Source: Bacteroidales bacterium (lineage in GTDB: Bacteria; Bacteroidota; Bacteroidia; Bacteroidales; UBA10428). From it: a stretch of DNA of 64,000 nucleotides. Below the pieces are notes generated by a model, which was not told where the DNA came from, searched no databases, and worked only from the letters and a program-made list of their open reading frames with translations. Shown piece after piece: positions 27,456 through 56,491 of the stretch (position 1 is the stretch's first letter; every line of letters starts with the position of its first letter). Made by a program: the position numbers and the translations under genes. The stretch covers positions 8,849-72,848 of the forward strand of contig JBGSSF010000033.1 of the NCBI GenBank assembly GCA_041737175.1, in the 5' to 3' direction.

Positions 27456-27482
27456 TATATACTTTTTAAAGTATTCTTAAGC

Positions 27483-28702: not shown

Positions 28703-28739
28703 AATAGTCGTATTAGATTAAACATAAAATTGATTAAAA

Positions 28740-30233: not shown

Positions 30234-30239
30234 AAACTG

Positions 30240-33200: not shown

Positions 33201-33245
33201 AAATATTGTTGCAAACAGTTCTTTCATGGGTAAGAGATATTTCAT
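30240..33245 (-). CDS. SusC/RagA-family TonB-dependent outer-membrane transporter
   Basis: CarboxypepD_reg-like domain (RGRVVDDQKISLPGVAVQVKNTLRGTVTDGDGSFSI), plug (VVVIGYGTQRAKDLT, ITVLKDASAAAIYGVRAANGVILITTRRG), and a barrel ending ...YTVGIKANF. Confidence 0.92.
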   Translation of the reverse strand: MKYLLPMKELFATIFVIFLLQPLNGQVLIRGRVVDDQKISLPGVAVQVKNTLRGTVTDGDGSFSISAQPVDTLIFTMVGMEPQQVAVGNQTVIDIILATQATLMDEVVVIGYGTQRAKDLTAPIVTVKGEDLSRQITSNAMQALQGKVAGLQIITSGVPGSGASVKIRGVGSIGDFANPLYVVDGVFVDNIDFLGAGDIEDITVLKDASAAAIYGVRAANGVILITTRRGIEQKPSISYEGYYGMQIPVNILKMASKNQYVELMNEANAEATGYIPKNPDDYPVSTDWYQELVRPAPMSGHSIDISGAADKTSYSFGGSYLYQDGIMDTQNDFNRFNIRGRLEQTVNAYLKIGLNTIVSRYDKYNPNQGAFFNAYVNPPVYPVYDSDNTEAYPVLFGSPQTYGFGNQYGNPVAAAYYNDNYEKGNKLVFNGYAEFYPVKDKLTFKISYNQDVSNWTTRNYTPAFNVGGSQGVRKSSLSKTSGNGSKQIIDNLLTYKDQSGKVNYSIMIGQSTRMEKSEYLSGSAIDVSGLDDQSKYLVTGSFRDRYAWDGADRYNGLSFFTRGIFNISDKYLATLTFRADASSKYQEKWGYFPSVGLGWNLTQERFMENQKIFSYLKARASWGLLGNDNVPANSSVILGQSGAGSSAIFNNQLIDGMGAQTVVQNYLRWEVVNEYDVGFDFTLTGNKLSGNLDFYHRTTNNVVFFAPIATGGGVAELLDNNGSVVNAGIELSLRWSREFKNGIAMNAGFNATTVHNEVTRLDGRNYIPGAYVRGNYTTRTAVGHPIGSFYGYEITGVYKSESEALLDPIDQTIKNEGFFRYKDQNGDQVINEEDKVYLGSAIPWLISGVDVGITYRNFDLNISLMGQLGNKILNAKRMNRDVFTDGNYDQDFYENRWTKDNPSDEYPSATAYNYSFIQQANDFFVESGSYIRIQNIQAGFTTTKIPFIPQLRIYIAAQRPYTFFTYNGFTPEIGGSPISSGIDNSVYPLQSVYTVGIKANF

Positions 33246-41126: not shown

Positions 41127-42358
41127 GCAATTTCTTCCACATAATCCAATTCCTTTCCATAGGTTTCCTCCGTGAGGAATACCGACCACAAGGCAACTCC
41201 GATAAAGATCACCCCGACTATCACTCCGGAGGTCCACAATCCCGTCACCGGGGTAAGTGTGCCCAGGAGAAAGGTCATCAGTATGGTGGCGCCCCGCACA
41301 AAATTCGGAGCTGTTGTTGTAACCGTGGCCCTAATGTTCGTGCCAAACTGTTCAGATGCAGCGGCCACAAAAATCGCCCACAAACCACCCATGGGGATAC
41401 CCAGAATGAACAAATCGAGGTAAAGCATGAAAGGAGCGGCATCAAAAAGTGAGAAATACACGATGGTGAAAATGGCGATACAGGATGTGGCCAGAACAAT
41501 CGCTTTTTTGCGTGACCGGAAAATCATGGACAGGTAACCGAAGAGGAAGCTTCCGATGGCGGCCCCGGTATAATGGAGCATCACCGAGGTAGATCCCTTG
41601 ACCGTACCGGTTATCCTGAGGGCATCCTGCGCAAATGACGGCGCGTTAATGGTAAGCACACTCACCGTATACCAGCAGGGAAGTGCAAGCAAAGTGGCAA
41701 AAAGGAATTTCCGGAACCTGGTTTTATGGGTAAACAAGGCGAGAAAATTACCCTTGCTGACTTTCTGCGCTTTTGTTTTTTCATACATCCCTGATTCATA
41801 AACTGCCAGTCTCAGAAAAAGTAATGCCAGTCCCAATCCTCCGCCTGCCCAATAAGCCGTTCGCCAGCTGAAACGTTCGGCAACCACAAAAGCCAGCACA
41901 GCACCCAGAATGCCAATACCTGAAACGATGCTGGCCCCCAGCCCTCTCTTTTCCTTCGACATAACCTCGGATATAAGTGTCACGCCCAGACCGAATTCCC
42001 CCGAGAGTCCGAATCCTGCCACAAACCTCAGCCAGGCGTATTGATGTATGCTGGTTACAAAACCATTGGCGATATTGGCCACCGAATAAAGCAGGATTGT
42101 CAGGAACAGGATGGAAAGCCTGCCTTTCTTATCGCCCAGCACTCCCCACACAATCCCGCCAATCAGCATGCCGGCCATTTGCATGCTCAGAATAAAATTG
42201 CCGGTATTGAATAAATCAGCGCTGCTGGTAAGTCCCAGGTCAGTGAGGCTAGGATTCTTGACAATTCCGAAAATAATCAGGTCATAGATGTCAACGAAGT
42301 AACCCAGGGAGGCTACGATCACAAGAATATTGAACAGTTTGGGCGGGCGGGTTTGCAT
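41123..42358 (-). CDS. MFS transporter
   Basis: 411 aa, ~12 predicted TM helices, MFS loop-2/3 motif GVLGDKKGR. Its 3' end overlaps the convergent kinase gene by 4 nt. Confidence 0.8.
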   Translation of the reverse strand: MQTRPPKLFNILVIVASLGYFVDIYDLIIFGIVKNPSLTDLGLTSSADLFNTGNFILSMQMAGMLIGGIVWGVLGDKKGRLSILFLTILLYSVANIANGFVTSIHQYAWLRFVAGFGLSGEFGLGVTLISEVMSKEKRGLGASIVSGIGILGAVLAFVVAERFSWRTAYWAGGGLGLALLFLRLAVYESGMYEKTKAQKVSKGNFLALFTHKTRFRKFLFATLLALPCWYTVSVLTINAPSFAQDALRITGTVKGSTSVMLHYTGAAIGSFLFGYLSMIFRSRKKAIVLATSCIAIFTIVYFSLFDAAPFMLYLDLFILGIPMGGLWAIFVAAASEQFGTNIRATVTTTAPNFVRGATILMTFLLGTLTPVTGLWTSGVIVGVIFIGVALWSVFLTEETYGKELDYVEEIA

Positions 42359-42485
42359 GGTCTGTAGAATTTATTCCATGCATCAAAGTTAGCATTTGGA
42401 TGATTCGGTGGTACTTTATGATGATCTGCATTAACATTTTTATAGGGTAGTTGTTATTCCTTTAAACCTTAAATGCATCAACATT

Positions 42486-42962
42486 ATGCCACAAAAAGCA
42501 CCCAAACCAGTACCTGAAGGCATGAATACTGTCACCACACACCTGTTGTTCAACGGTAACTGCCGGCAGGCAATCGAGTTTTATGAAAAAACCTTTAACG
42601 CTTCCGTGGTCGGAGAAATCATGGATGGTCCGGGCGGAAAGACCGTAATGCACGCTCTTATGAAATTTGGTGACACATTTATCATGATGGCGGATGGCAT
42701 GCCGGGAAGCTGGGAGAAAGGCCCGGCTGATCACACTACGGCAAGCCTGTTCATGTATGTGAATGATTGTGATGCCGTGTATAACAAAGCTCTTGCCGCA
42801 GGATGCAAGGTTGAACATCCGATGATGGATGCTTTCTGGGGTGACCGGATGGGCAACATCATTGATCCCTTTGGTCATGCCTGGGGAATTGCCTCGCACC
42901 TTTGGGATCTTACGCCTGAAGAAATGGCGAAGGGGTATGAGGAGTGGATTAGGGAAATGTAA
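42486..42962 (+). CDS. VOC/glyoxalase-superfamily (PhnB-like) protein
   Basis: 158 aa. LLFNGNCRQAIEFYEKTF...FMMADG...DAFWGDRMGNIIDPFGHAW is the characteristic PhnB/3-demethylubiquinone methyltransferase-like VOC pattern. Confidence 0.8.
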   Translation: MPQKAPKPVPEGMNTVTTHLLFNGNCRQAIEFYEKTFNASVVGEIMDGPGGKTVMHALMKFGDTFIMMADGMPGSWEKGPADHTTASLFMYVNDCDAVYNKALAAGCKVEHPMMDAFWGDRMGNIIDPFGHAWGIASHLWDLTPEEMAKGYEEWIREM

Positions 42963-43102
42963 CTTCGTAATTCTTAAATCGGTGTTCCTTGTTCAATATT
43001 CTTATGAACGCTTATATTATTTTGACCTCCCAATTCTATTGATTTGGCCCCCTTTATTTTTAAGGATTATTGCGTGTAATCAGAAAAAAAATTCTAACTT
43101 GC

Positions 43103-43116
43103 CGTGAACGTACACG
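43103..43116. promoter_or_regulatory. Candidate LacI-type operator upstream of the hexuronate-locus regulator
   Basis: CGTGAACGTACACG is a 14-bp imperfect palindrome (12 of 14 positions symmetric) centred on ACGT, 19 nt upstream of the ATG at 43135. Confidence 0.3.
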
Positions 43117-43134
43117 AGATTAACTCCGCACGGG

Positions 43135-44235
43135 ATGAGCAAGAACGTCAGGGCACAGCAAAAACGCGTTACCATCAAGGACATCGCTGCGCTTTCACAT
43201 GTATCTATCGGGACAGTTGATCGTGTTTTGCATAATCGCGGTGAGGTTAACCAGGAAACCCATGAAAGGGTTATGTCGTTTGTGGAGGAGCTGGGCTATA
43301 CGCCTAACCTGCTTGCCAAATCACTTGCTTTAAAGAAGAGTTTTACCATTGCTGCCCTGATTCCGGAGACAGGCCCTGGCAATCCCTATTGGGGAATGCC
43401 CTTGGCCGGTATTAGCAAAGCCGTTGAAGAACTTAAAGATTTCAATACCCGGATATCAGTTTTCCATTTCGATATGGGAGATGAGACATCTTTTATCAGA
43501 CAATTCGACAATGTCCTGGATATTCATCCCCAGGGCATCATCATGGCGCCTACCTTTCATGAAACTGCGATGCGTTATTTGTCAAAATGTGAAGAATTAA
43601 ATATTCCGCTGATTTTGATAGACAATAACCTGGACGCCGGCACAAGACTGGGTTATTTCGGACAGGACGCCCTGCAGAGCGGCTATGTGGCGGCCAAGTT
43701 GATGAATTACGGATTGCCGGGCTGTTCAACGGTGCTCATCCTTAACCTGGCGCAGAATAAGGTTATCACGCGGCATATGAACCGGAGGGAACAGGGATTC
43801 AGGGAGTATTTTCAAAAGATAGTTCCCGGCAATTGCATTGAGGCAGTGTCGGTTGAAATTGATCTGATCCGTCAGGATGAACCTGAAAGAAGCCTGAAGG
43901 AAATCTTCGGCAGGTATTCCGATATTTCGGGGATCTTTGTTACCAATTCCAGGGTCCACAAGGTGGCCAGGTACTTTACCCAACACAAAAAAGGAGGCAT
44001 TCTTCTTGTTGGGTACGACCTGATTAATGCCAACATGGAATTTGTGGAGAACGGGATCGTGGATTTTCTGATTTGCCAGAAACCCGAAGATCAGGGATAC
44101 AAATCTGCCATGGCGATGTTTAATTATCTGCTTACCGGTAAGCCGGTTGAAAAAGTTAACTACAGCCCTATTGATATCATCATTAAAGAAAATTCAGGGT
44201 ATTATAAAAACATAAACAATTCTTACCGTGCATGA
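43135..44235 (+). CDS. LacI-family transcriptional regulator heading the hexuronate locus
   Basis: HTH VTIKDIAALSHVSIGTVDRVLHNRGEV followed by a PBP-like sugar-binding core. Its stop overlaps the next gene's start (ATGA). Confidence 0.88.
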   Translation: MSKNVRAQQKRVTIKDIAALSHVSIGTVDRVLHNRGEVNQETHERVMSFVEELGYTPNLLAKSLALKKSFTIAALIPETGPGNPYWGMPLAGISKAVEELKDFNTRISVFHFDMGDETSFIRQFDNVLDIHPQGIIMAPTFHETAMRYLSKCEELNIPLILIDNNLDAGTRLGYFGQDALQSGYVAAKLMNYGLPGCSTVLILNLAQNKVITRHMNRREQGFREYFQKIVPGNCIEAVSVEIDLIRQDEPERSLKEIFGRYSDISGIFVTNSRVHKVARYFTQHKKGGILLVGYDLINANMEFVENGIVDFLICQKPEDQGYKSAMAMFNYLLTGKPVEKVNYSPIDIIIKENSGYYKNINNSYRA

Positions 44236-45080
44236 AAAAGCTGGATTTTTCTGATCTCGAAGGTAAAGTTTGTGTCATTACCGGGGGCGCAGGGGTAATT
44301 GGCAGAGCCATTTGTGAAGCCCTGGCTGCAAACGGAATAAAAACCGCCGTCAGCGATATGAAACTGGATGCGGCGGAGGAAATGGCCGGGAATCTTACAG
44401 GCAGATATGGCACCAAGTGCATCGGGGTGCAAGCCAATGTGCTTGATAAAGAATCACTGATCAAAGCCAGAGATCTGATCCATGAAAAACTCGGTCCCAT
44501 TGACATCTTAATCAATGGCGCAGGAGGCAATTCACCCGATGCTACTACCCGGCTGGAACAGATTTCTGATTCAGAAGCTCAGCTCGACGACAGCTTCTTT
44601 GGATTGGGCATGGCCGGATTTGACAAGGTATTTGCGTTGAATTTCACAGGGACACTTTTACCAACCCTTGTTTTTGCCAGGGAAATGGTTGAAAACGGGA
44701 AAGGTGTGATTTTGAACATCTCGTCCATGAACTCATTCAGGCCACTCACAAAAATTCCCGCATATTCAGCTGCCAAAGCATCTGTGAATAATTTTACCCA
44801 GTGGTTGTCAGTTCACCTGGCCAAAACAGGTGTAAGGGTCAATGCGATTGCACCGGGTTTTTTTCTGACCAACCAGAACCGGTTTCTGCTGACCGATGAA
44901 AAAACTGGAGAGGCCACGGCACGCGGCAGGAAAATAATCGGCAATACACCGACGGGCAAATATGGTCAACCTGAAGATCTGCAGGGAGCTGTTCTTTTCC
45001 TGCTGTCTGATTTGTCTTCTTTCATCACCGGGATTGTGTTGCCGGTTGACGGCGGATACAGCGCTTACGGGGGAGTTTAA
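44232..45080 (+). CDS. SDR-family oxidoreductase, probable fructuronate reductase / D-mannonate oxidoreductase (short-chain UxuB type)
   Basis: TGGAGVIG cofactor motif and catalytic Y-x3-K (YSAAKASV). The GFFLTNQNRFLL tail is characteristic of the short-chain mannonate oxidoreductases found in uronate loci. The functional assignment rests on locus context. Confidence 0.65.
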   Translation: MKKLDFSDLEGKVCVITGGAGVIGRAICEALAANGIKTAVSDMKLDAAEEMAGNLTGRYGTKCIGVQANVLDKESLIKARDLIHEKLGPIDILINGAGGNSPDATTRLEQISDSEAQLDDSFFGLGMAGFDKVFALNFTGTLLPTLVFAREMVENGKGVILNISSMNSFRPLTKIPAYSAAKASVNNFTQWLSVHLAKTGVRVNAIAPGFFLTNQNRFLLTDEKTGEATARGRKIIGNTPTGKYGQPEDLQGAVLFLLSDLSSFITGIVLPVDGGYSAYGGV

Positions 45081-45133
45081 GCGGCGGGGGATATGGATAC
45101 TTTTTACTATATTCGGTTTAAAATAATTGCCAA

Positions 45134-46429
45134 ATGATATATTTTGAGCAGGGATCCGAAAATACAGTTCTGTCAGACAGTGATCTGAAGAAGGGACTGT
45201 TCAGTGCTCTTGACAAACTGGGAAAACGGGAAAAGGTGCTGGCCATTCCCCCCGACTTTACCCGTTTTCATTCTCATGCCGGGGAGCTCACTTCAATGTT
45301 GTACGAATATTACGGCGATAAGCTGACAGATGTACTTCCGGCGTTGGGAACCCATTCACCCATGACGCCGGATCAATTGAGCGCCATGTTTCCGGGCATA
45401 CCGGAAGAGCTCTTCAGAGTGCATTACTGGCGCAGTGATGTTCTCACTTTAGGAAGAGTTCCGGGGGACTATATTGCCGAGATTACCGATAATGCCCTGA
45501 ATTACGATTGGCCGGCCCAGCTGAATAAACTGGTTTGCCAGGGCGGGCACGATCTGATATTGTCCCTGGGACAGGTTGTTCCCCACGAGGTCATCGGAAT
45601 GGCCAACTATAACAAGAATCTTTTTGTTGGTACCGGAGGAGCCGAGGGTATCAACAAAAGCCACTTTGTGGGCGCTGTTTATGGAATGGAACGCATGATG
45701 GGCCGGGCAGATAATCCGGTGCGGAAAATACTCAATTATGCATCATCACATTTTATAAGTGACCTGCCCGTTGTATATGTGCATACCGTTGTAGGCAGAG
45801 ATGACAATGAGAACCTGGTGGTGAGGGGCCTTTATATCGGGGATGATGAACAGGTTTTCACCCGTGCTGCCGACTTATCACTCAAGGTGAATTTCACCGT
45901 GCTTGATAAACCGGTCAAAAAGGTAGTCGTCTACCTCGATCCTGCAGAATTTAAAAGCACATGGCTGGGCAATAAAAGCATTTACCGCACCCGGATGGCC
46001 ATTGCGGATGGAGGTGAACTTCTGGTGCTTGCCCCGGGAGTGAAGGAATTCGGGGAAGACCCGGAGATCGACCAGTTGATCAGGAAGTACGGGTACTTTG
46101 GAACCGCGGAAACTCTTCAGAACCTGAAAGAAAACAAGGACCTGGAGGGTAACCTCAGTGCAGCCGCCCATCTTATTCATGGCAGTTCCGAAGGCAGGTT
46201 CACCATCACCTATTGTCCCGGTCACCTGACCAAGCGGGAAATCGAAAAGGTGAATTTCAGGTACGGTTCCCTGAAGAATATGCTCGTGAAGTACAATCCG
46301 GCAAGCATGAAGGAAGGCTACAATTTGCAGGAGGACGGTGAAGTGGTCTTTTATATTTCCAATCCTGCGCTAGGGCTTTGGGCTTGTAAGGAGAGGCTGC
46401 AGACCAAAGACCTAAGTCCAAAGGCCTAA
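45134..46429 (+). CDS. LarA-like (DUF2088 / lactate-racemase N-terminal domain) protein, putative nickel-pincer-dependent 2-hydroxyacid epimerase
   Basis: 431 aa, the size of the LarA family. Has an N-terminal PPDFTRFHS (D-x-T-R) motif, VVPHEVIGMANYNKN, and a GTGGAEGINKSH Gly-rich/Lys-His region. The last 9 codons and the stop are encoded by the heptamer array at 46401-46477. Confidence 0.55.
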   Translation: MIYFEQGSENTVLSDSDLKKGLFSALDKLGKREKVLAIPPDFTRFHSHAGELTSMLYEYYGDKLTDVLPALGTHSPMTPDQLSAMFPGIPEELFRVHYWRSDVLTLGRVPGDYIAEITDNALNYDWPAQLNKLVCQGGHDLILSLGQVVPHEVIGMANYNKNLFVGTGGAEGINKSHFVGAVYGMERMMGRADNPVRKILNYASSHFISDLPVVYVHTVVGRDDNENLVVRGLYIGDDEQVFTRAADLSLKVNFTVLDKPVKKVVVYLDPAEFKSTWLGNKSIYRTRMAIADGGELLVLAPGVKEFGEDPEIDQLIRKYGYFGTAETLQNLKENKDLEGNLSAAAHLIHGSSEGRFTITYCPGHLTKREIEKVNFRYGSLKNMLVKYNPASMKEGYNLQEDGEVVFYISNPALGLWACKERLQTKDLSPKA

Positions 46430-46477
46430 GACTAAAGACCAAAGACCAAAGACCAAAGACCTAAGACGAAAGGCGAA
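46401..46477. repeat. Heptamer tandem array, 11 x AGNCNWA (consensus AGACCAA)
   Basis: Units counted directly: AGACCAA AGACCTA AGTCCAA AGGCCTA AGACTAA AGACCAA AGACCAA AGACCAA AGACCTA AGACGAA AGGCGAA. The array contains the TAA stop (46427-46429) of the LarA-like gene and ends 51 nt before the MFS ATG. Confidence 0.95.
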
Positions 46478-46528
46478 GATTGATTCTTACGATTTAATGA
46501 CTAATAAAATACGCTAACAAGTAACTCC

Positions 46529-47923
46529 ATGACAACAATCTCCGAGCAAATCGGAAAATACCGATGGACGATCTGCACCCTTGTATTTTTTGCTACCACA
46601 GTTAACTATTTTGATCGCAATGTTTTGGGACTTTTGAAGCCCATCCTGTCTGATGCAGGTATGTTCGGCGCGGACAAACCCAACCAGGAGTTGTATTATT
46701 CCTATGTGGTGATGAGTTTTCAGATTGCTTACGCTATTGGCATGCTGCTGGCAGGAAGGCTTATCGACTGGTTCGGGACAAGAAAAGGATATGCCTTTTC
46801 ATTGCTGGGATGGAGCATTGCTGCCATAGGCCACGCCCTCGCCCAGAATACCTTTACATTTGGTTTTTGGCGGGCCGCGCTGGGTTTTACCGAATCAGGC
46901 AATTTCCCGGCAGCCAACAAGACCATGGCAGAATGGTTTCCGAAGAAGGAAAGGGCATTTGCCACAGGTATTTATAATTCCGGCGCCAATGTGGGTGCCA
47001 TCGTTACTCCGTTGTTTGTTCCCTGGATGGCCAGGGAATGGGGATGGCAATGGGCTTTTATTTTTGTGGGTGCCATCGGTCTGATCTGGCTGTATTTCTG
47101 GTTTCGCATTTATGGTTCACCTGAACAAAAGCTGAAAGCAGGCGTTCTTTCGCAGGCAGAATATGATTATATTCACAGCGACCTGGATGAGCAGGCTGAA
47201 GAGAAAAAAAGCGGCGACAAGGTATCATGGTTTAAGCTTCTGACCTATCGCCAGACCTGGTCATTCTTTTTTGGAAAATTTCTGACTGACGGGGTATGGT
47301 GGTTCTATCTTTTCTGGCTTCCAGCTTTTCTGAGTGGTGAAAACACCCGGAAAATCCAGGAATACATGGCAGCTCATCCGGATTTCACAGGCGATCAGTC
47401 CGCCGTACCGGGGATTATCAGCTGGACCCTGGCGGTAGCTGTGGTTTACACGATTTCAACCATTGGTTCGGTCTATGGAGGTTGGCTTCCCAAAAGATTC
47501 ATTAATAATGGAATGGCTGCGTACAAAGCGCGTAAAACATCCATGTTTATTTATGCTTTATTTCCGCTTACCGTATTGTTAGCCAGCAGGCTGGGCCATA
47601 TTAACACATGGTATGCAGTTCTCGTCATTGGTATTGCCTGCGCAGCTCACCAGGCCTGGTCGGCAAACATTTTCACCACGGTCACCGATATGTTCCCCAA
47701 AAGGGCCGTGGCATCTGTCACCGGCATTGGGGGAATGGCGGGAGCTGTAGGTGGCATACTGATCGCACAGTCAGCCGGGCTGATTTTGAAACATTATTCA
47801 GCGCTCGGAAATATCCAGGCAGGCTACGGGTACCTGTTCATCTTCTGCGGAATTGCCTACATCGCAGCCTGGCTCCTCATGCATTTTATGGTGCCTAAAT
47901 TAAAGCGCGTTGAAAATTTGTAA
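46529..47923 (+). CDS. MFS transporter, ExuT-like hexuronate transporter (anion:cation symporter subfamily)
   Basis: 464 aa, 12 TM helices. The N-terminal FFATTVNYFDRNVLG motif is typical of the ACS/ExuT family. Located immediately upstream of uxaC. Confidence 0.75.
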   Translation: MTTISEQIGKYRWTICTLVFFATTVNYFDRNVLGLLKPILSDAGMFGADKPNQELYYSYVVMSFQIAYAIGMLLAGRLIDWFGTRKGYAFSLLGWSIAAIGHALAQNTFTFGFWRAALGFTESGNFPAANKTMAEWFPKKERAFATGIYNSGANVGAIVTPLFVPWMAREWGWQWAFIFVGAIGLIWLYFWFRIYGSPEQKLKAGVLSQAEYDYIHSDLDEQAEEKKSGDKVSWFKLLTYRQTWSFFFGKFLTDGVWWFYLFWLPAFLSGENTRKIQEYMAAHPDFTGDQSAVPGIISWTLAVAVVYTISTIGSVYGGWLPKRFINNGMAAYKARKTSMFIYALFPLTVLLASRLGHINTWYAVLVIGIACAAHQAWSANIFTTVTDMFPKRAVASVTGIGGMAGAVGGILIAQSAGLILKHYSALGNIQAGYGYLFIFCGIAYIAAWLLMHFMVPKLKRVENL

Positions 47924-47935
47924 ACAAGGATTAGG

Positions 47936-49336
47936 ATGAAAGGCTTTTTAGATTCCAATTTCCTTCTGCATACAAAAACTGCGGAATATCTTTACCATCA
48001 GCATGCGGCCGGGATGCCCATCATCGACTACCACTGTCATCTCTCCCCGAAACAAATTGCTGAAAATAAGAATTTTGACAACCTTACCCAGCCCTGGCTG
48101 TACGGTGACCATTATAAATGGCGCGCCATGCGCTCCAACGGAATTGATGAACGGTATTGCTCGGGCAATGCTTCAGACTGGGAAAAGTTTGAGAAATGGG
48201 CGGAAACCGTGCCCTTTACCATGAGGAACCCGCTTTATCACTGGACGCATCTTGAACTTCAGCGGTATTTTGGTATTACTGATCTTTTAAGTCTGCACAC
48301 TGCTGCCTCCATATACGAAAAGACGTCGGGCATGCTCGGACAGAAAGACTTTAGTCCCGTTGGCCTTATTAAAAGGATGAACGTAGAGATTGTCTGCACC
48401 ACGGATGACCCGGTGGATTCGCTGGAATATCACCGTAAGATCAAGGAAACCACAACCGGGATCCGTGTAATTCCTGCCTGGAGACCGGATAAAGTGCTCA
48501 TGGCGGATAATCCGACAGGATTTAATGAATACATCGGCAAACTGGCGGTTGTATCGGGAATTGATATTACCAGTTATGGCCATTTACTGGAAGCTTTGGA
48601 CAAAAGGCACGAATTCTTTCATGACTCCGGATGCCGGCTCTCCGACCATGGTTTGGAAAGCTTCTATTGCGACAGTTATACGCTGCCTGAGATAAATGCG
48701 ATTTTTGGCAGAATCAGGAAGGGTTTCGATCTGGCTCCCGCTGAGGTTTCCAAATTCAGGTCAGCCATGCTTTATGACCTGGCCGTAATGGATTGTGAGA
48801 GAGGCTGGACCCAGCAATTCCACGTAGGAGCCATGCGCAATAACAATGCCCGGATGTTCATAACCTACGGACCTGATGGCGGCTTCGATTCCATAGGTGA
48901 TTATGCGGTCGCCATTCCTACGTCACGTTTTCTCGACAGGCTCGATAAGGAAGGCAAACTGGCCAAGACGATATTGTATAACCTGAACCCTTCGGATAAT
49001 GAGGTAATGGCAACCATGATCGGGAATTTCCAGGACGGTACGGTACCGGGTAAAATTCAATGGGGTTCGGGATGGTGGTTCCTGGATCAGAAGGACGGCA
49101 TGGAGAAACAACTGAATGCACTCTCTAACCTGGGATTGCTCAGCCGGTTTGTCGGTATGCTCACCGATTCACGCAGCCTGCTCTCTTACCCCCGCCATGA
49201 ATATTTCCGCAGGGTACTTTGCAACCTGATCGGGAATGACGTTGAAAACGGAGAACTGCCGGATGATAAAACCTGGCTGGGCAAAATCGTGGAGGATGTA
49301 TGCTATAATAATGCACGAAATTATTTCAATTTTTAA
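47936..49336 (+). CDS. uxaC: Glucuronate isomerase (uronate isomerase)
   Basis: Full-length 466-aa match to the UxaC pattern: FLLHTKTAEYLYH..., PIIDYHCHLSPKQI, DHYKWRAMRSNG, NPLYHWTHLELQRYFG, GMLTDSRSLLSYPRHEYFRR. Confidence 0.95.
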   Translation: MKGFLDSNFLLHTKTAEYLYHQHAAGMPIIDYHCHLSPKQIAENKNFDNLTQPWLYGDHYKWRAMRSNGIDERYCSGNASDWEKFEKWAETVPFTMRNPLYHWTHLELQRYFGITDLLSLHTAASIYEKTSGMLGQKDFSPVGLIKRMNVEIVCTTDDPVDSLEYHRKIKETTTGIRVIPAWRPDKVLMADNPTGFNEYIGKLAVVSGIDITSYGHLLEALDKRHEFFHDSGCRLSDHGLESFYCDSYTLPEINAIFGRIRKGFDLAPAEVSKFRSAMLYDLAVMDCERGWTQQFHVGAMRNNNARMFITYGPDGGFDSIGDYAVAIPTSRFLDRLDKEGKLAKTILYNLNPSDNEVMATMIGNFQDGTVPGKIQWGSGWWFLDQKDGMEKQLNALSNLGLLSRFVGMLTDSRSLLSYPRHEYFRRVLCNLIGNDVENGELPDDKTWLGKIVEDVCYNNARNYFNF

Positions 49337-49358
49337 AACACCCTAAAAAGAAAATACT

Positions 49359-50714
49359 GTGAAATCTGAAAAAAAACACAATTCCCGTCGTAATTTCATT
49401 AAGAAAGCGGTACTGGGTACGGCATCACTGACCCTGGGCGGACTGGGATTATCTGCCTCATCCTATGCACGTATCAGGGGCGCAAACGAACGGATGAACA
49501 TTGCCATCCTTGGCTGTTACAGGCGGTTTAATGCGCTTATGGAATCATTGCCCAAACTAAGTGACGACATAAACATAGCCTTTGTTTGTGATGTTGATCA
49601 GAAGAGGTTATCGGAAGCGCAGGCTAAAGTGAAAGAGAAGATGGGCATGATGCCGGGCGGAGAGGAGGATCTGCGAAAAATACTGGAAAACAAAGGTGTG
49701 GATGCCATCATCAATGCCACACCGGATCACTGGCATGCTCCGGCAACCTTCCTGGCGCTTCAGGCCGGAAAGCATGTTTACCTGGAGAAACCATGTTCTC
49801 ACAATCCCCGTGAGGGTGAACTGCTGGTTGATTTCCAGAAGAAATACAACAAAGTAATACAAATGGGATCACAGCAGCGTTCAGCGCCTGATACAAGGGA
49901 GATTGTCGATGAAATACACAAAGGACTGATTGGGGACCCTTATCTGGGGGTTGCATTTTATGCCAACAGCAGGGGTCGTGTGCCTAATCCCCGGCAGGTT
50001 CCTCCCCCGCTTACACTTAACTGGGAACTTTTCCAGGGGCCAGCTCCGCGTGAACCGTATATGGATATTTATTTTGATTACAACTGGCACTGGTTCTGGC
50101 AGTATGGCACCGGTGAGACCGGGAACAATGCCGTGCATGAACTCGATGTATGCCGCTGGGCGCTGCAACTCGATTACCCGAAACAGGTCATCGTGAACGC
50201 CGCAAAGCAACATTATCGCGACGATGGATGGCAGATGTATGATACCATGGATGCGGATTTTATTTTCGGGAACGGAAAGACCATAAAATGGGACGGCAAG
50301 AGCCGCACAAATTACTATACCTATGGCATGGACCGGGGCAGTATCATTTACGGATCAACGGGAACGGCAGTGGTTAACCGGAATGGTTACAGGGTATTTG
50401 ATTTGCTGGGTAAGCTTACCCGTGAGCGGAAAGCCGATGAGGTTGCACAGACTACGCAGCCTGGCGGAGCCGGAGGTATGGATGGGCTGCATATCATGAA
50501 CTTCATCAATACAATACGCGGTACTGCTTTATTGCAGCACCAGCCCATAACGGAGGGAGCCAAAAGCACGCTGCTCGGACATCTGGCCAACATCTCCTTC
50601 CGGGTGAATGCTCCGCTCACCATGGATGAAAGCAACGGTCGCATTCTGAACAATCCGGAAGCCATGAAACTTTGGGACAGGCAATATGAAAAAGGGTGGG
50701 AACCGAAAATTTAA
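49359..50714 (+). CDS. TAT-exported Gfo/Idh/MocA-family oxidoreductase (GH109-like architecture)
   Basis: GTG start. Twin-arginine leader NSRRNFIKKAVLGTASLTLGG. N-terminal Rossmann domain and the PDHWHA / YLEKP motifs of the Gfo/Idh/MocA fold. Confidence 0.8.
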   Translation: MKSEKKHNSRRNFIKKAVLGTASLTLGGLGLSASSYARIRGANERMNIAILGCYRRFNALMESLPKLSDDINIAFVCDVDQKRLSEAQAKVKEKMGMMPGGEEDLRKILENKGVDAIINATPDHWHAPATFLALQAGKHVYLEKPCSHNPREGELLVDFQKKYNKVIQMGSQQRSAPDTREIVDEIHKGLIGDPYLGVAFYANSRGRVPNPRQVPPPLTLNWELFQGPAPREPYMDIYFDYNWHWFWQYGTGETGNNAVHELDVCRWALQLDYPKQVIVNAAKQHYRDDGWQMYDTMDADFIFGNGKTIKWDGKSRTNYYTYGMDRGSIIYGSTGTAVVNRNGYRVFDLLGKLTRERKADEVAQTTQPGGAGGMDGLHIMNFINTIRGTALLQHQPITEGAKSTLLGHLANISFRVNAPLTMDESNGRILNNPEAMKLWDRQYEKGWEPKI

Positions 50715-50727
50715 AAAATAGGATGCC

Positions 50728-52032
50728 ATGAATTCAACACGCAGAGGTTTTATTAAAAATGCTTCCCTGCTGGCTGCCGGGGCGGCTCTTCCTTTTGATG
50801 CATTATCCTTCATCCAAAGGAAAGTCGCAGCAACCGATAAAATCCGCGTGGCGCTTATTGGTGCCAACGGTATGGGATTTAATAACCTGGCTTCCTTTCT
50901 GAAAAATCCCGAAATCGCATGTACCGCCCTGTGCGATGTGGATAAGAATGTGCTGGACAAGCGGACAAAAGACCTTACGGAACTTGGCGCGCCTGCGCCG
51001 AAGCATTTTGCTGATTACAGGAAGATGCTGGAGTACAAGGATATCGATGTAGTAATCATAGGCACTCCTGATCACTGGCACTGCATGCAGTTTGTCGATT
51101 CTTTGGAGGCCGGGAAACATGTGTATGTTGAGAAACCTTTGGGCAACTCAATTGCTGAGATCAATATCATGCAAAAGGCGGCAAGGCGGTATGGTACAAT
51201 GGTGCAGGTAGGGCAGTGGCAAAGAAGCCAGCCCCATTTCGTGGATGCCATCCGTTTTCTGAAGACGGGAACCCTGGGTCGCATACGCACATGCAAAGCC
51301 TGGTCGTATGTCGACTGGAAGGGGCCGGTTCCCAAAGTACCGGACACACCTGTACCTGAAGGAGTGGATTACGACATGTGGCTGGGACCCGCTCCCAAAC
51401 GTCCCTTTAATAAAAACCGGTTTCATTTTACATGGCGCTGGTACTGGGAATATGCCGGCGGCTTGATGACCGACTGGGGAGTGCACCTGATTGATTACAT
51501 TTTGTATGGAATGGATAAATCAATTCCGGTATCAGTGATGGCAACCGGCGGGAAATACGCCTATCCCGAGGATGACATGGTTACGCCGGATACAATGACC
51601 GCCGTATATGATTTCAAGGATTTCACCATGATCTGGGAGCATACCATTGGCATCGGGCTTGGGAACTGGAGAAGGCCTCATGGTATGGCTTACATTGGCG
51701 AGAACGGCACCCTGGTACTGGATCGTAACGGATGGGAAGTAGTGCCGGAAAAGCAAAAAATAGAAGCCATTCCCGTACAAAAGAATGTGGGCGTAGGTCT
51801 CGACCTGCATGGGCGGAATTTTATCGATTGCCTTAAAAACAATGTGCCCGGGGATCTTCATGCTGGCATTGACGCGGGCAGGAACGTGGCTCTTGTGGCG
51901 CAAATGGGAAATATTGCATACAGAACAGGAGAAAAAGTATACTGGGACGATGACAAACAATTGTTCAGCACTCCCGCGGCCAATGAACTGATTATACCAG
52001 AGTACCAGAATGGCTGGAAATTGCCTCAATGA
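50728..52032 (+). CDS. TAT-exported Gfo/Idh/MocA-family oxidoreductase, second paralogue
   Basis: Twin-arginine leader MNSTRRGFIKNASLLAAGAALP. Rossmann motif IGANGMGFNN, and the PDHWHC and YVEKP motifs. Confidence 0.8.
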   Translation: MNSTRRGFIKNASLLAAGAALPFDALSFIQRKVAATDKIRVALIGANGMGFNNLASFLKNPEIACTALCDVDKNVLDKRTKDLTELGAPAPKHFADYRKMLEYKDIDVVIIGTPDHWHCMQFVDSLEAGKHVYVEKPLGNSIAEINIMQKAARRYGTMVQVGQWQRSQPHFVDAIRFLKTGTLGRIRTCKAWSYVDWKGPVPKVPDTPVPEGVDYDMWLGPAPKRPFNKNRFHFTWRWYWEYAGGLMTDWGVHLIDYILYGMDKSIPVSVMATGGKYAYPEDDMVTPDTMTAVYDFKDFTMIWEHTIGIGLGNWRRPHGMAYIGENGTLVLDRNGWEVVPEKQKIEAIPVQKNVGVGLDLHGRNFIDCLKNNVPGDLHAGIDAGRNVALVAQMGNIAYRTGEKVYWDDDKQLFSTPAANELIIPEYQNGWKLPQ

Positions 52033-52039
52033 TAAGCGT

Positions 52040-53287
52040 ATGAAAATTGAAAAATACTCCTTCGGAACAGGCGACCGCTTTGGAAAAGAAGGCCTTGCCC
52101 AATTACAGGCCATACAGGATATCAACCGCCTCGGGATACCGGTGGTGCCTGTCTGGAACAAGTCCAACCGGGAGCATTCCATTATACATTCCGTTCCTTC
52201 CGATGTAAAGCAGGAAGCGGCCACAGCAGTTGCAGAAGGCAGGTATACCGGCAATTACTATGTTGATGCGGATCATATCAATATGGATACGGTGGACAGA
52301 TTTGTCAGCAGCAGCAATTTCTTTACCATTGATGTGGCGCATTTCATTGGCAGGAAAGCATCACAGGAAGCCATTGCTGATTTTCAAACAAGGTACTCGA
52401 AATACCTGGGTGATATGAGCATTCCGGGTATCGAACAAAAGCTGAATGTCACCGCCGGCTTTTTGACTCACCTTGCCGAAGACTATCTTGTAGCCATTGC
52501 GGAAGTAAAAAAGATCTATGATCACATTTGCACGATTAAGGGTCAGTCAAACTTCGTAGCGGAAGTATCCGTTGACGAGGCAGAAATAGTGCAGGGGCCG
52601 CTGGAACTGTTTTTTATACTCGCTGAATTAAAAGAAAAGGGCGTGGAGGTTCAGACCATTGCACCCAAGTTCTCAGGCTTGTTTGCCAAGGGCGTCGATT
52701 ATATCGGAGACGTGCAGGGATTTGCCAGAGAATTTGAACAGGATGTAGCTGTAGTTAAGCATGCGGTAAAAGAACTGGGATTACCGGAAAGCCTCAAGTT
52801 AAGCGTGCACAGCGGCAGCGACAAGTTTTCGATTTATCCTGCCATCCGGGCGGCCATCCGGAAATTTGATGCAGGGATACATGTGAAAACAGCCGGCACA
52901 AACTGGCTGGAGGAAGTGATCGGACTGGCTGAAGCGGGTGATGACGGTCTTGAGATCGCCAGGGCTGTATACGCGAAATCCATGGATCGTTATGATGAAC
53001 TCACCGGACCCTATGCCACAGTATTAAACATAAACCGGCAATTGCTTCCGGAAGTTGCCACGGTAAATTCATGGAACAGCAAACAATTCAGTGAAGCACT
53101 TACACACGATCAAAGCTGCAAAAATTACAACCCGCATTTCAGGCAGCTGATCCATGTAGGATACAAGATTGCCGCGGAAATGGGAGATCGTTTTCTCTCA
53201 ACCCTGGATAAGCATCATGAGATCATTGCCGGCAAAGTGAAGTATAATTTGCTGGAGAGGCATCTGAAACCCTTGTTTAAAGCTTAA
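52040..53287 (+). CDS. uxaE: Tagaturonate/fructuronate epimerase family protein
   Basis: Start set at the ATG at 52040 (MKIEKYSFGTGDRFG). Collinear conserved blocks shared with Thermotoga-type UxaE: SFGTGDR, DADH, EVSVDE, LSVHSGSDKFSIYPA, HVKTAGTNWLE, RQLIHVGY. No signal peptide. Confidence 0.85.
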   Translation: MKIEKYSFGTGDRFGKEGLAQLQAIQDINRLGIPVVPVWNKSNREHSIIHSVPSDVKQEAATAVAEGRYTGNYYVDADHINMDTVDRFVSSSNFFTIDVAHFIGRKASQEAIADFQTRYSKYLGDMSIPGIEQKLNVTAGFLTHLAEDYLVAIAEVKKIYDHICTIKGQSNFVAEVSVDEAEIVQGPLELFFILAELKEKGVEVQTIAPKFSGLFAKGVDYIGDVQGFAREFEQDVAVVKHAVKELGLPESLKLSVHSGSDKFSIYPAIRAAIRKFDAGIHVKTAGTNWLEEVIGLAEAGDDGLEIARAVYAKSMDRYDELTGPYATVLNINRQLLPEVATVNSWNSKQFSEALTHDQSCKNYNPHFRQLIHVGYKIAAEMGDRFLSTLDKHHEIIAGKVKYNLLERHLKPLFKA

Positions 53288-55256
53288 CCAGCTTATTCAC
53301 GGCAATTAACCTGTCACTTTCTACAATATGAAGAAAGTATATACCTGAAGGCAGGTCAGAAATATTCAGGTCCTTTTCCGTAAAAATGCGTGTCTCCATG
53401 CGAATTCTGCCTGTATTGTCAATGATCCTGGCATATAAGGGATCGTTTGTCCTGCTGGAAATAAAGAGAAAATCATGTACCGGGTTGGGATATATCCGGA
53501 TATCCCGGATTGGGTTTATAAAATCCGTACGGTACGAAAAATAGGATTCTTCAAAAACCCTGGCAGTATCCAGATTGGCAATATGAATATTGTCGAACCA
53601 CAAATCCTTACCTGACAGGCTTTGCTGCTCCGATACGATTTCCACCCTGTCAATGGCCTTCCAGTCGAATTTACCCTCAGGATTGTACCAGGTATTGTTA
53701 TCCCATGACCCCTGTTCCGTAAAACTGCTCAAGGGGATATGGAAATGATGCCATCGACCGTCAAAAGTGGAATTTGTTCCGTTGAAAGTGTAGCGCATTC
53801 GCCAGGGATGATCGGCAGGATCCGTTGTTTTGGTATCCATGAACCTGATATCGAAACTGATGGAAGATGAACTTCCCCGCAGCATCAGGTCGAGTGAATA
53901 ACCTTCACTGACAAGTCGCGACAGGTCTTTATCCGGCTGAAAATCAAATCCGACCGTATTGTATTGCGCGGCCCCGCTCCAGGAAAGGCAGTAGTTGTCG
54001 TTGTTGGGTTTGCCTGTGGAATAAAAGCTGAGAACGTGGCTGCCATAGCCTGATTCAAATATCCGGCTGCCGATATAGTCGGTGTAAAGCATAAAACCCA
54101 CGCTGTCTGCCTTCTGAACATAAATCGTTTGTTCCGGTATATTCATTCCCAGAGAATCGAGAAGGGGAACGTTCAGATCATGGTCAAACATCCCGTTCCC
54201 GTCTTCCTCGAACAGGCCGAATCCACCGTGATAATCCCAGACAGTCCAGGCGATCCCGTTTTCCTCGAGGTATTTTCGCACGATACTATACCAATAGTTA
54301 CGGGAATAATTGTTGCTGTTGGGAATGTACACGCCGAATTCTCCGCAATAAACCGGAACATTCTTGGCATTTTTAAACTGTATGGCAATGTCTAACCATG
54401 ATTTTACCCTGGCTGCCGTGCCCTGGTTCTGGTAATCATTAAAGTTTTGCTGTATCCAGGTTCCGTTCAGGCTTGAAGGAAAGACCGGCATACTGTCGGG
54501 ATGGTAAGGGAAAGGGACGCCGCTTAATGGTACCATGGAAGGATCAACCCAGCTTGCACCCTGGTGGGTGAAGATAAATGGATCATAGTAGTGGAATGTG
54601 TAAATCAGCTTGCTGTCGGTATAAACCGGCATGTCGTCGAGATTGTTGTAACTGTTCCAACCGGCCGGTCCGATAACAATAAAATGTTTTGTATCCACTT
54701 CACGGATCGCTTCGATGACCTGCTGCTGAATCGTATTCCACAAGTTATCGCTGATCCCGTGGGGTTCATTCAACACTTCATAATAAAGCAATTCAGTAGC
54801 ATCTTTATAATGAGAGGCCATTTGCGTCCACACCTTTTCCAGGACAGGGCCGATATCGGGATCTGTGTCTGAAGTAACATCAAAGGTGTGGTTATCCAGG
54901 ATCAGATGTATCTCCAGCTCTTCAGCCCAGCTGACAACTTCATCCAGAAATTCATAAAACAAGGGTTCAATAATATAATCGGGTGCCCCCCTGGTCATAT
55001 AATGCAGATTGATAGGCAGGCGGATCACATCGCAACCCAGACTTTTTATCTGTTCGAAGTCAGTTTTTGTATACCGGGTAAACTGGATCTGACCGGCGCC
55101 GGAGACCTGGAACCAGCCTGTGAGGTTAACACCGCGGTGAAAAGGGACTTCCTGGGATTGGAGGGGATAGGAGATGGATATCAGCAATAGCCAGAGCAGG
55201 GACAAAAGACCACCTCGCGACAGTCTCTTGCCGAAGAGATTGGCAGAATAAAGCAT
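53277..55256 (-). CDS. GH5-family glycoside hydrolase (cellulase/mannanase-type) with a C-terminal beta-sandwich region and a T9SS sorting domain
   Basis: Signal peptide. GH5 blocks RGVNLTGWF, VIRLPI, ILDNHTF, acid/base YEVLNEPHG, nucleophile VYCGEFG. C-terminal T9SS type-A CTD (IYPNPVHDFLFI...GIYFLHIV...KLVKL). The 3' end overlaps uxaE by 11 nt. Confidence 0.85.
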   Translation of the reverse strand: MLYSANLFGKRLSRGGLLSLLWLLLISISYPLQSQEVPFHRGVNLTGWFQVSGAGQIQFTRYTKTDFEQIKSLGCDVIRLPINLHYMTRGAPDYIIEPLFYEFLDEVVSWAEELEIHLILDNHTFDVTSDTDPDIGPVLEKVWTQMASHYKDATELLYYEVLNEPHGISDNLWNTIQQQVIEAIREVDTKHFIVIGPAGWNSYNNLDDMPVYTDSKLIYTFHYYDPFIFTHQGASWVDPSMVPLSGVPFPYHPDSMPVFPSSLNGTWIQQNFNDYQNQGTAARVKSWLDIAIQFKNAKNVPVYCGEFGVYIPNSNNYSRNYWYSIVRKYLEENGIAWTVWDYHGGFGLFEEDGNGMFDHDLNVPLLDSLGMNIPEQTIYVQKADSVGFMLYTDYIGSRIFESGYGSHVLSFYSTGKPNNDNYCLSWSGAAQYNTVGFDFQPDKDLSRLVSEGYSLDLMLRGSSSSISFDIRFMDTKTTDPADHPWRMRYTFNGTNSTFDGRWHHFHIPLSSFTEQGSWDNNTWYNPEGKFDWKAIDRVEIVSEQQSLSGKDLWFDNIHIANLDTARVFEESYFSYRTDFINPIRDIRIYPNPVHDFLFISSRTNDPLYARIIDNTGRIRMETRIFTEKDLNISDLPSGIYFLHIVESDRLIAVNKLVKL

Positions 55257-55285: not shown

Positions 55286-56491
55286 CTAAGTTAATAAAAA
55301 TTCCCTGGGTACATCTTTCAGCCTGGCGATATTCCGGATCCTGTCCTTCACATCAAAGCCCGAAGCGCAGTTGACCTGGCATACATCGCACTGTTCACAC
55401 GGTTTGCCGGATAAATCAGCCAGGTTGAGGGTTTGCTGCGCATGATCAAGATTTCTGTATCCGTAGGCATACATAAAACTTCGCATAATGGTGGGAATAT
55501 CGAGGCCATGCGGACACTGACTGCTGCACTTCCTGCACTGCAGGCAGTAAAGGCTTTGTCCGGCTTGCGCCAGTTTTAAATCCTTCAGTTCGTCATCCGT
55601 GATTTTAAGATCCCCCATCATGGTTATATTATGCTGCAATTCCTCGAAGTTGGTCATGCCTGACATCAGGGTATGAACATTTTCATTTTGGGCTACCCAT
55701 TTAAGTGCTGCTTTTGAACTGATCGGTTCTGTACGGTTCTGATCCCAAAAGCCGCCTGCCATTGTCTTCATGGCAATGATACCCAGGCCGGTTGATGCGC
55801 CGTATTGAACGGCTTCATTCACCTCCTGCAATTTCTGGAGCCGGAAATTGTAAGCTGCCATGGCCACATCATAAATACCTGTGTCTGCAGCAGCACGGAT
55901 GGCTTCATCCACATAGCTGTGCGTTGCAATACCTATGAAACGCGCCTTGCCGCTCTTTTTAAAATCCTCCATCACCCTGAGCAGGGGTTCGAAAAACACC
56001 GATTCACGTTTGGCTGCAAAGGGTAAAAAGAGAATATCCAGGTAGTCGACTCCGAGACGCTTCATGCTGTTCTCGATATCACTCTTAAAATCAGATCCGG
56101 CATTCGGATCAGTAAAAACTCCCTTCTGATGATCTGTTCCTTTGGGCATGGAACTGGTGGCAATCAGGTAGGATTCCCTGGGGAGGTTTTTGAGCACTCC
56201 TCCGAGCATGGTTTCGTTGTTGCCGTTTCCATAGTAAGTGGAGGTTCCCAGCAACCTGACACCCTTTTCCAGGGCAGCCTGAACCAGAGCGGGATTGTTG
56301 GTGTCCCCGGTTCCCATGCTCAACAGGGGAATCTTCAGGCCGGTTTTACCAAGTGTTCTTAAAGGCATTGCCAGAGAAGGATCAGCAGCGGATTGCGGGG
56401 CAAAAGCTTTTAACGATCCGGGGACCAGGACTGTTCCTGAAAGCCCCAGGATACTTTTTTTCAGAAAATCACGTCGATGATTGGGTTTCAT
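55286..56491 (-). CDS. TAT-exported aldo/keto reductase fused to a C-terminal 2x[4Fe-4S] ferredoxin-like domain
   Basis: Twin-arginine leader HRRDFLKKSILGLSG. AKR core (GTSTYYGNGNNE, LDILFLPF). Two ferredoxin Cys motifs: CLQCRKCSSQCP and CEQCDVCQVNC. Confidence 0.8.
   Translation of the reverse strand: MKPNHRRDFLKKSILGLSGTVLVPGSLKAFAPQSAADPSLAMPLRTLGKTGLKIPLLSMGTGDTNNPALVQAALEKGVRLLGTSTYYGNGNNETMLGGVLKNLPRESYLIATSSMPKGTDHQKGVFTDPNAGSDFKSDIENSMKRLGVDYLDILFLPFAAKRESVFFEPLLRVMEDFKKSGKARFIGIATHSYVDEAIRAAADTGIYDVAMAAYNFRLQKLQEVNEAVQYGASTGLGIIAMKTMAGGFWDQNRTEPISSKAALKWVAQNENVHTLMSGMTNFEELQHNITMMGDLKITDDELKDLKLAQAGQSLYCLQCRKCSSQCPHGLDIPTIMRSFMYAYGYRNLDHAQQTLNLADLSGKPCEQCDVCQVNCASGFDVKDRIRNIARLKDVPREFLLT

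Follow-up and report, generated by a model that had tools for sequence, protein, structure and literature searches.

The window analyzed here, a stretch of 64,000 nucleotides (64 kb) from a contig of a Bacteroidales bacterium, contains a cluster of eight genes on the plus strand (positions 43135 to 53287), the third of which codes for a homolog of the lactate racemase LarA that is predicted to act as a hexonate 2-epimerase with the nickel-pincer nucleotide (NPN) as cofactor. The gene assignments are based on open reading frame (ORF) calling combined with Pfam and NCBIfam scans of the window proteins (Table 1). They confirmed the gene order given in a preliminary description of this DNA, namely, a LacI-type regulator, a short-chain dehydrogenase/reductase (SDR), the LarA homolog, a transporter of the major facilitator superfamily (MFS), the uronate isomerase UxaC, two oxidoreductases of the Gfo/Idh/MocA family, and the epimerase UxaE; the coordinates 44232 to 46429 given there for the LarA-like gene cover the SDR and the LarA homolog together. 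Since the spacing between the genes ranges from −23 to +99 nucleotides (nt), with the lacI stop and the SDR start overlapping by 4 nt, the cluster from lacI to uxaE is likely a single operon. A promoter and terminator scan of positions 42300 to 53800 gave counts indistinguishable from those of shuffled sequence.

Table 1. Genes of the hexuronate cluster and of the distal kinase and aldolase in the 64-kb window
Positions	Strand	Predicted product	Basis
43135-44235	+	LacI-family regulator, probable repressor of the cluster	Pfam LacI and Peripla_BP_4
44232-45080	+	UxuB-type SDR (fructuronate reductase/D-mannonate oxidoreductase)	NF006132, 369 bits (cut-off, 281)
45134-46429	+	LarA homolog, group 18, predicted NPN-dependent hexonate 2-epimerase	NF052594; Pfam Lar_N
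46529-47923	+	MFS transporter of the anion:cation symporter (ACS) type, ExuT/DgoT-like	Pfam MFS_1, 184 bits
47936-49336	+	Uronate isomerase UxaC	Pfam UxaC, 683 bits; NF002794, 634 bits
49359-50714	+	Gfo/Idh/MocA oxidoreductase, twin-arginine signal SRRNFIKK	Pfam; N terminus read
50728-52032	+	Second Gfo/Idh/MocA oxidoreductase, twin-arginine signal TRRGFIKN	Pfam, NCBIfam; N terminus read
52010-53287	+	UxaE-family tagaturonate/fructuronate epimerase	PF16257, 207 bits
59152-59823	-	KDPG/KHG (2-keto-3-deoxy-6-phosphogluconate/2-keto-4-hydroxyglutarate) aldolase Eda	Pfam Aldolase, 128 bits
60020-61054	-	PfkB-family kinase, KdgK subgroup	Pfam PfkB and clustering

Family, fold, and active site of the LarA homolog

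Judged from its sequence, the product of the third gene is clearly an intact member of group 18 of the LarA homologs (LarAH) within the LarA superfamily. It matched the NCBIfam model NF052594, "nickel-dependent putative hexonate epimerase," with 660.5 bits (cut-off, 500) over positions 2 to 410 of the 411 in the model, and weakly matched Pfam Lar_N (26.6 bits; gathering threshold, 23.3). The best match by sequence in the PDB was 4NAR (E value, 1.7e-37), which is TM0442 of Thermotoga maritima, also termed GntE2 or LarAH20. An AlphaFold2 model of the protein (predicted local distance difference test [pLDDT], 75; predicted template modeling score [pTM], 0.78) was used for a Foldseek search, in which ranks 1 to 19 were all occupied by LarA-family structures (E values, 1e-22 to 7.5e-9), while the next match had an E value of 0.03; 4NAR again ranked first with a template modeling (TM) score of 0.70, followed by lactate and malate racemases. 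An hhalign comparison with LarA of Lactiplantibacillus plantarum aligned all motifs and was not significant alone (probability, 0.75%; E value, 0.074), owing to a shallow profile and a single-sequence template; membership in the superfamily consequently rests on the Pfam, NCBIfam, PDB, and Foldseek results. Among more than 8000 homologs scored, the best 120 were all at least 71% identical. The nearest database proteins stem from metagenome-assembled genomes (MAGs) of Bacteroidales, and at least 585 species genomes carry a relative, with identities of at least 63% across phyla.

Functional residues were mapped by motif alignment to L. plantarum LarA and by transfer from entry ACP_2683 (Acidobacterium capsulatum, 61% identical to the window protein) in Dataset S2 of Desguin et al. 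2020 (PMC7583248). The preliminary description had named the catalytic His pair, the cofactor-tethering Lys, and the nickel-binding His as the residues to look for in an alignment with LarA, and all of them are present: the catalytic pair corresponds to H74 in the motif LGTH and H151 in VVPH (LarA H108 and H174), the tether to K161, located 10 residues past H151 as in LarA (K184), and the nickel ligand to H177 in the motif INKSH (LarA H200). In addition, D41 and R44 (LarA D72 and R75) are equivalent to residues of cofactor and substrate binding, and K281 (LarA K298) to the residue binding the carboxylate. The group 18 signature of Dataset S2 (D R H H E V K H. W L N K S A A L I H S) was identical to that of ACP_2683 at 19 of 19 positions checked, comprising the E-V loop, W-L-x-N-K, and S-x-A-A-x-L-I-H-x-S. 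With respect to the rule for GntE enzymes, which calls for E, V, A, and H at the positions of LarA F175, F176, W358, and T359 (PMC11770544), E152 and V153 are clear, whereas the fit of A345 and H346, noted by inspection, depends on the alignment, that of 2020 placing L347 and I348 at W358 and T359. The residues of catalysis and NPN binding did not vary among 15 aligned homologs, and the conservation of the catalytic and cofactor residues across phyla, at 63 to 98% identity, implies strong purifying selection on them.

These residues also bear on whether the protein could instead racemize lactate or be a relic that is inactive and binds no nickel-pincer cofactor. Many homolog entries are named "nickel-dependent lactate racemase" or "DUF2088," and the window contains no larBCE genes. 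The likeness to L. plantarum LarA (PDB 5HUQ) extends to the fold (TM score, 0.63), the His pair, the tethering Lys, and the nickel-binding His; however, sequence identity is only about 13 to 15%, F175-F176 of LarA is replaced by E152-V153 and Y294-Q295-x-V297 by W-L-x-N, and the gene lies in a context of sugar acid catabolism, not of lactate. These substrate-loop signatures part the hexonate groups from the lactate racemases (PMC7583248). A relic is contradicted by the invariance of the catalytic and cofactor residues across phyla and by one related locus in which larBCE lie beside the gene (see below). Lactate racemase and dead enzyme were thus both excluded by the pocket residues and the conservation, and we regard either as extremely improbable.

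The closest solved structure is that of GntE2, which shares the catalytic and cofactor residues and the E-(V/S) loop in addition to being the best match by sequence and fold. It belongs to a different LarAH group, shows about 24% identity in the structural alignment, and has no NCBIfam model in common with the window protein.

Gene neighborhood in 80 related loci

The genomic context was compared in a survey of 80 loci from at least eight phyla, each comprising up to 10 kb on either side of a LarA homolog and taken from Bacteroidota, Verrucomicrobiota, Acidobacteriota, Planctomycetota, Ignavibacteriota, Rhodothermaceae, Spirochaetales, and Gammaproteobacteria. Neighboring proteins were clustered, and representatives were annotated. 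As greedy ORF calling missed the LarA homolog in 8 high-GC loci, we use the counts obtained by tblastn, which are independent of ORF calling; where two figures are given below, the second counts the loci that have the neighbor no more than 3 kb from the LarA homolog and on its strand.

A conserved linkage of this LarA clade to uronate genes, proposed in the preliminary description as a check, was borne out by the UxuB-type SDR (53 of 80 loci; 49 close by), UxaC (33; 18), and UxaE (30; 6). The 6-phosphogluconate dehydrogenase (6PGDH) Gnd was present in 50 loci (47), a PfkB-family kinase of a distinct clade, here called PfkB2, in 40 (34), LacI in 28 (14), a PdxB-like dehydrogenase in 26 (26), a Gfo/Idh/MocA protein of 332 amino acids (aa) in 23 (22), KduI and KduD in 14 (3), KdgK and Eda in 13 (2), a HAD-like protein in 10 (10), UxuA in 6 (6), and a protein resembling diphosphate-dependent phosphofructokinase (PPi-PFK) in 5 (5); a homolog of the MFS transporter was found in 23 loci. 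UxaB, UxaA, and altronate-pathway genes did not belong to the conserved context of the 80 loci. The modal operon reads LacI-SDR-PfkB2-LarAH-(Gfo)-(PdxB-like)-Gnd. Published figures for group 18 (SDR, 36%; 6PGDH, 32%; ribokinase-family kinase, 16%; MFS, UxaC, and KduI, 12% each; Table S1 in PMC7583248) agree with this survey.

The strong linkage to Gnd argues for 6-phosphogluconate as the end product of the pathway and hence for an inversion from the manno to the gluco configuration at C2 after the fructuronate reductase step. In the window the SDR and UxaC adjoin the LarA homolog, whereas Gnd and PfkB2 are missing from it. The same is true of the immediate neighborhood in the three closest relatives (L001 to L003; 75 to 78% identity), which like the window have no adjoining kinase or Gnd and carry MFS-UxaC-Gfo-Gfo-UxaE downstream; within this clade, the adjacent kinase and Gnd were relocated or lost and the downstream genes gained, with no essential departure from group 18 otherwise. 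A dedicated kinase is lacking not only from window-type operons but also from those of the Rikenellaceae type (UxaC-SDR-LarAH-Gfo-Gnd), which fits gluconate as a product that a housekeeping gluconokinase could use.

The canonical exit from mannonate, via UxuA, KdgK, and Eda, has UxaC, the UxuB-type reductase, and the mannonate node in common with the cluster, and the window does encode Eda and a kinase of the KdgK subgroup, on the opposite strand 5.9 to 7.8 kb beyond uxaE, in line with the distance of 7 kb given for kdgK-eda in the preliminary description. The differences are that the window has no UxuA and that the epimerase would send mannonate to 6-phosphogluconate and the pentose phosphate pathway, not to 2-keto-3-deoxygluconate (KDG). 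Specifically, when every non-overlapping ORF of 150 aa or more in the 64 kb was scanned with Pfam, no UxuA, UxaA, UxaB, Gnd, LarB, LarC, or LarE was found, and tblastn with UxuA, Gnd, LarB, LarC, and LarE as seeds (E ≤ 1e-3) gave no match in the same 64 kb. The earlier statement that the window encodes neither mannonate nor altronate dehydratase therefore held; the absence of uxuA is a weak clue.

It could be read to mean that the LarA homolog fully replaces UxuA in this organism, with KdgK and Eda serving only KDG from unsaturated uronates. Such a replacement would agree with the 64 kb lacking UxuA and with the low count of UxuA within 10 kb (only 6 of 80 loci, versus 14 for KduI/KduD and 13 for KdgK/Eda). 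On the other hand, 64 kb is a small part of a genome, uxuA may lie elsewhere, and in the six loci two exits from mannonate coexist, as uxuA is part of the operon there, inserted between the genes for the SDR and the LarA homolog. Complete replacement is thus possible for this organism, if doubtful. Because UxuA occurs inside the LarA-homolog operon, the epimerase is a second exit from mannonate, i.e., a branch, and not simply a substitute for UxuA.

Two loci bear on cofactor supply. In Saccharicrinis sp. FJH62 (L016), the genes SDR-PfkB2-LarAH-Gnd are immediately followed by a TonB-dependent receptor, NikR, a 244-aa membrane protein, LarB, LarC, and LarE (L016:12819-18599), which looks like a complete island for nickel uptake and NPN biosynthesis coupled to the pathway. 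An Acidobacteriaceae MAG (L074) carries LarB and LarC within 10 kb of the LarA homolog. Both arrangements support, at the level of gene context, an NPN dependence of group 18.

Predicted route from hexuronates to 6-phosphogluconate

With moderate confidence, we propose that the LarA homolog is an NPN-dependent epimerase converting D-mannonate to D-gluconate, which would complete a route composed of UxaC/UxaE, the SDR, the epimerase, a kinase, and Gnd. The proposal draws on group 18 membership, on GntE2 (4NAR) as the closest structure, and on the linkage to the UxuB-type SDR and 6-phosphogluconate dehydrogenase. In such a route, the MFS transporter would bring in glucuronate or galacturonate, UxaC would isomerize these to fructuronate or tagaturonate, and UxaE would convert tagaturonate to fructuronate, which the UxuB-type SDR would reduce to D-mannonate. 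After epimerization to D-gluconate by the LarA homolog, a kinase would form 6-phosphogluconate, and decarboxylation by Gnd would lead into the pentose phosphate pathway; neither of the latter two enzymes is encoded in the window, whereas most related genomes have them next to the LarA homolog. In the active site, the NPN cofactor would be tethered to K161, with nickel held by H177 and with H74 and H151 serving as the acid/base pair, so that C2 of the hexonate could be inverted by transient hydride abstraction through a 2-keto intermediate.

The preliminary description had likewise suggested an interconversion of aldonates such as D-mannonate and D-gluconate. This stands as the best reading of the sequence data, yet it is not a new idea, for group 18 had been labeled "putative hexonate epimerase" by Desguin et al. 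2020 (PMC7583248). Nor is the branch of hexuronate catabolism undescribed, as had been supposed. Rodionova et al. 2012, as cited by Valk et al. 2020 (PMC6978723), put forward for T. maritima a route in which the gluconate 2-epimerase GntE connects the hexuronate isomerase pathway to gluconate kinase and 6-phosphogluconate, and also noted homologs in Acidobacterium and Terriglobus. Epimerase activity was subsequently demonstrated for GntE2 (group 20), which converts D-mannonate to D-gluconate, and for GntE1 (group 19) (PMC7583248); a eukaryotic GntE was contributed by Urdiain-Arraiza et al. 2024, who also defined a GntE branch (PMC11770544), the third assayed GntE being LarAH15 of Phytophthora nicotianae. 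As far as these accounts describe it, T. maritima clusters UxaC, UxaE, fructuronate reductase, epimerase, kinase, and Gnd, its pathway logic matching that of the route proposed here (PMC6978723; PMC7583248). The Thermotoga kinase is of the COG1070/FGGY type, whereas group 18 genomes have a PfkB-type kinase, a pair of HAD and PFK-like proteins, or none nearby, and the window has neither kinase nor Gnd beside the gene. The LarA homolog is thus a routine member of a family already named and hypothesized to have this function; it adds nothing beyond the published family-level hypothesis, which the comparative evidence modestly strengthens, the gain being the larger survey of gene context.

Several points weigh against the proposed function. 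The literature search found no assay of any group 18 member, and the NCBIfam name retains "putative." The KM values of the GntE enzymes LarAH10, LarAH15, GntE2, and GntE1 for D-mannonate are high, ranging from 3.8 to 120 mM, and the authors themselves doubted that mannonate is the native substrate of GntE1 (PMC7583248, PMC11770544). Extracts of Lactobacillus suebicus epimerize 6-phosphomannonate, not free mannonate (PMC6978723). The window lacks Gnd, a gluconate kinase, and larBCE, which leaves us to infer the downstream steps and the cofactor supply. Finally, the PfkB kinase and the PdxB-like dehydrogenase linked to the gene in many genomes, the latter from a family acting on phospho-acids, would also fit a phosphorylated substrate.

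The L. suebicus activity and the last point lead to an alternative in which the enzyme is a 6-phosphomannonate/6-phosphogluconate 2-epimerase and PfkB2 a mannonate kinase, reduction being followed by phosphorylation and then epimerization. Valk et al. 2020 found this order in L. suebicus extracts, in which mannonate is phosphorylated first and 6-phosphomannonate is then epimerized to 6-phosphogluconate; both activities were shown there with the genes unassigned (PMC6978723). The L. suebicus route begins like the one proposed here, with UxaC, UxaE, and fructuronate reductase, and likewise leaves through 6-phosphogluconate and Gnd; it is known from extract activities alone, and its order of phosphorylation and epimerization is the reverse of that in Thermotoga. 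In the literature after 2020, no assay of group 18, of 6-phosphomannonate, or of a mannonate kinase was found.

Among the conserved neighbors, PfkB2 bears on this alternative. This kinase of about 359 aa forms a clade of its own apart from KdgK, and in 34 of the 80 loci its gene lies immediately upstream of that for the LarA homolog (e.g., L039:8808-9887 and L049:8905-9984); in Verrucomicrobia the PfkB2-LarAH pair is the only conserved module, flanked by housekeeping genes. PfkB2 matches no NCBIfam equivalog, does not occur in the window, and is a candidate gluconate or mannonate kinase. The PfkB kinase that the window does encode was considered as the epimerase-linked kinase and rejected, as it clusters with the KdgK group linked to Eda and UxaC, its ten nearest relatives there showing 68 to 74% identity, and stands apart from the kinases of about 359 aa adjacent to LarA homologs. 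The PdxB-like D-2-hydroxyacid dehydrogenase, a member of a family for phosphorylated 2-hydroxy acids, occurs in 26 loci, where its gene separates that of the LarA homolog from gnd (e.g., L072:12757-13896), including the Gammaproteobacteria MAGs L061 and L062. It scored 397 bits against a PdxB cut-off of 434; a sugar acid of the 2-hydroxy or 2-keto type, in phosphorylated form, is a possible substrate. In 10 loci the position held elsewhere by PfkB2, immediately upstream of the LarA homolog, is taken by a HAD_2-like protein (e.g., L024:5827-6717), joined in 5 of them by a protein of the diphosphate-dependent phosphofructokinase family (e.g., L015:7581-8867); the kinase step may have been taken over there by these non-orthologous proteins.

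Compared with GntE2, group 18 also possesses extra conserved basic or polar residues (K175, R285, R287, and the HGSSEGR motif), which a phosphorylated substrate might explain. Nevertheless, about half of the loci, the window among them, have no dedicated kinase adjoining, the substrate-recognition signature appears, most clearly in its E-V part, to be common to group 18 and the free-acid GntE groups, and the characterized relatives GntE1, GntE2, and LarAH15 use the free acid (PMC7583248, PMC11770544). Genomics does not fix whether phosphorylation or epimerization comes first. Given the kinase-less operons and the free-acid activity of the assayed relatives, the free acid is favored, and epimerization of the phosphorylated acid is considered rather unlikely. 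More tentative still is the suggestion that the group 18 LarA homologs and PfkB2 represent the missing genes of the mannonate kinase/6-phosphomannonate 2-epimerase route of L. suebicus. If a phosphorylated sugar acid were the substrate, it would be the first for a nickel-pincer enzyme, and a hexuronate-to-pentose-phosphate route omitted by standard pathway reconstructions would be widespread in Bacteroidota, Verrucomicrobiota, Acidobacteriota, Planctomycetota, and Ignavibacteriota.

The enzyme might also act on another 2-hydroxy sugar acid, for instance by epimerizing fructuronate to 5-keto-D-gluconate ahead of the SDR, these two compounds being C2 epimers in aldonate numbering, or by using D-altronate, L-gulonate/L-idonate, or an aldarate. 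The SDR matched gluconate 5-dehydrogenase models in NCBIfam with 155 bits, which is below cut-off, and D-mannonate oxidoreductase (NF006132) is the only model whose cut-off it passed. The gene for the 332-aa Gfo/Idh/MocA protein, which follows the LarA homolog in 23 loci, would be compatible with a different sugar acid. Against this, the Gnd linkage requires an end product that is a gluco-configured 6-phosphate, the fructuronate alternative would yield the same net pathway, and UxaB, UxaA, and the altronate-pathway genes lie outside the conserved context. Desguin et al. committed themselves only to "a hexonate" for group 18, while their suggestion for group 19 was an acid of the uronic or aldaric type (PMC7583248). 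On balance, a substrate of this kind is judged improbable.

If the proposed conversion of D-mannonate to D-gluconate is correct, glucuronate and galacturonate, which as uronic acids derive from the glycans of plants and hosts, would in many anaerobic and sediment Bacteroidales, and in representatives of seven or more other phyla, be routed via a nickel-dependent epimerase into the pentose phosphate pathway, and the textbook UxuA-KdgK-Eda sequence would not be the sole uronate route. The redox and carbon balance would be altered, with one CO2 and one NADPH formed per uronate at Gnd, and uronate use would hinge on nickel and NPN biosynthesis. Metabolic reconstructions of gut and sediment MAGs would be affected.

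Remaining genes of the cluster and of the window

The MFS transporter, whose top NCBIfam match (TIGR00893) remained under its cut-off, is by sequence a probable importer of hexuronates or aldonates. Given their twin-arginine signal peptides, a periplasmic location is probable for both Gfo/Idh/MocA proteins of the operon. Their resemblance to the BT_2158 glycoside 3-dehydrogenase family is weak, the match of the first (49359-50714) being partial and well under the cut-off; the second (50728-52032) was confined to L002 and L003, the closest relatives, and to a few other loci. L002 and L003 encode an extra secreted protein beside the Gfo/Idh/MocA genes (L003:14276-15667).

SusC/SusD pairs and a type IX secretion system (T9SS) sorting domain mark the window as Bacteroidota DNA. 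A glycoside hydrolase family 5 (GH5) cellulase with a T9SS tail is encoded at 53277-55256. The minus strand carries at 55286-56491 a gene whose product combines an aldo/keto reductase domain with a 4Fe-4S dicluster domain in one fusion protein, a similar gene being located near the LarA homolog in L003 and L011. Upstream of the cluster, the minus strand harbors a polysaccharide utilization locus (24319-33245) whose products are a SusD/SusC pair, two PF10091 proteins ("putative glucoamylase"), and a Laminin_G_3 protein. Also on the minus strand, three proteins of about 1100 aa that contain FG-GAP repeats and an ASPIC/UnbV domain are encoded in tandem (4497-15170); they are adjoined by a further SusD/SusC pair (15241-19987) and a second LacI regulator (20240-21280). 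Close to the start of the window (51-3228), genes for an aldo/keto reductase, a zinc alcohol dehydrogenase, an Amidohydro_2 protein, and a cupin protein lie together and may constitute another sugar or sugar-acid (lactone) pathway, unrelated to the LarA homolog.

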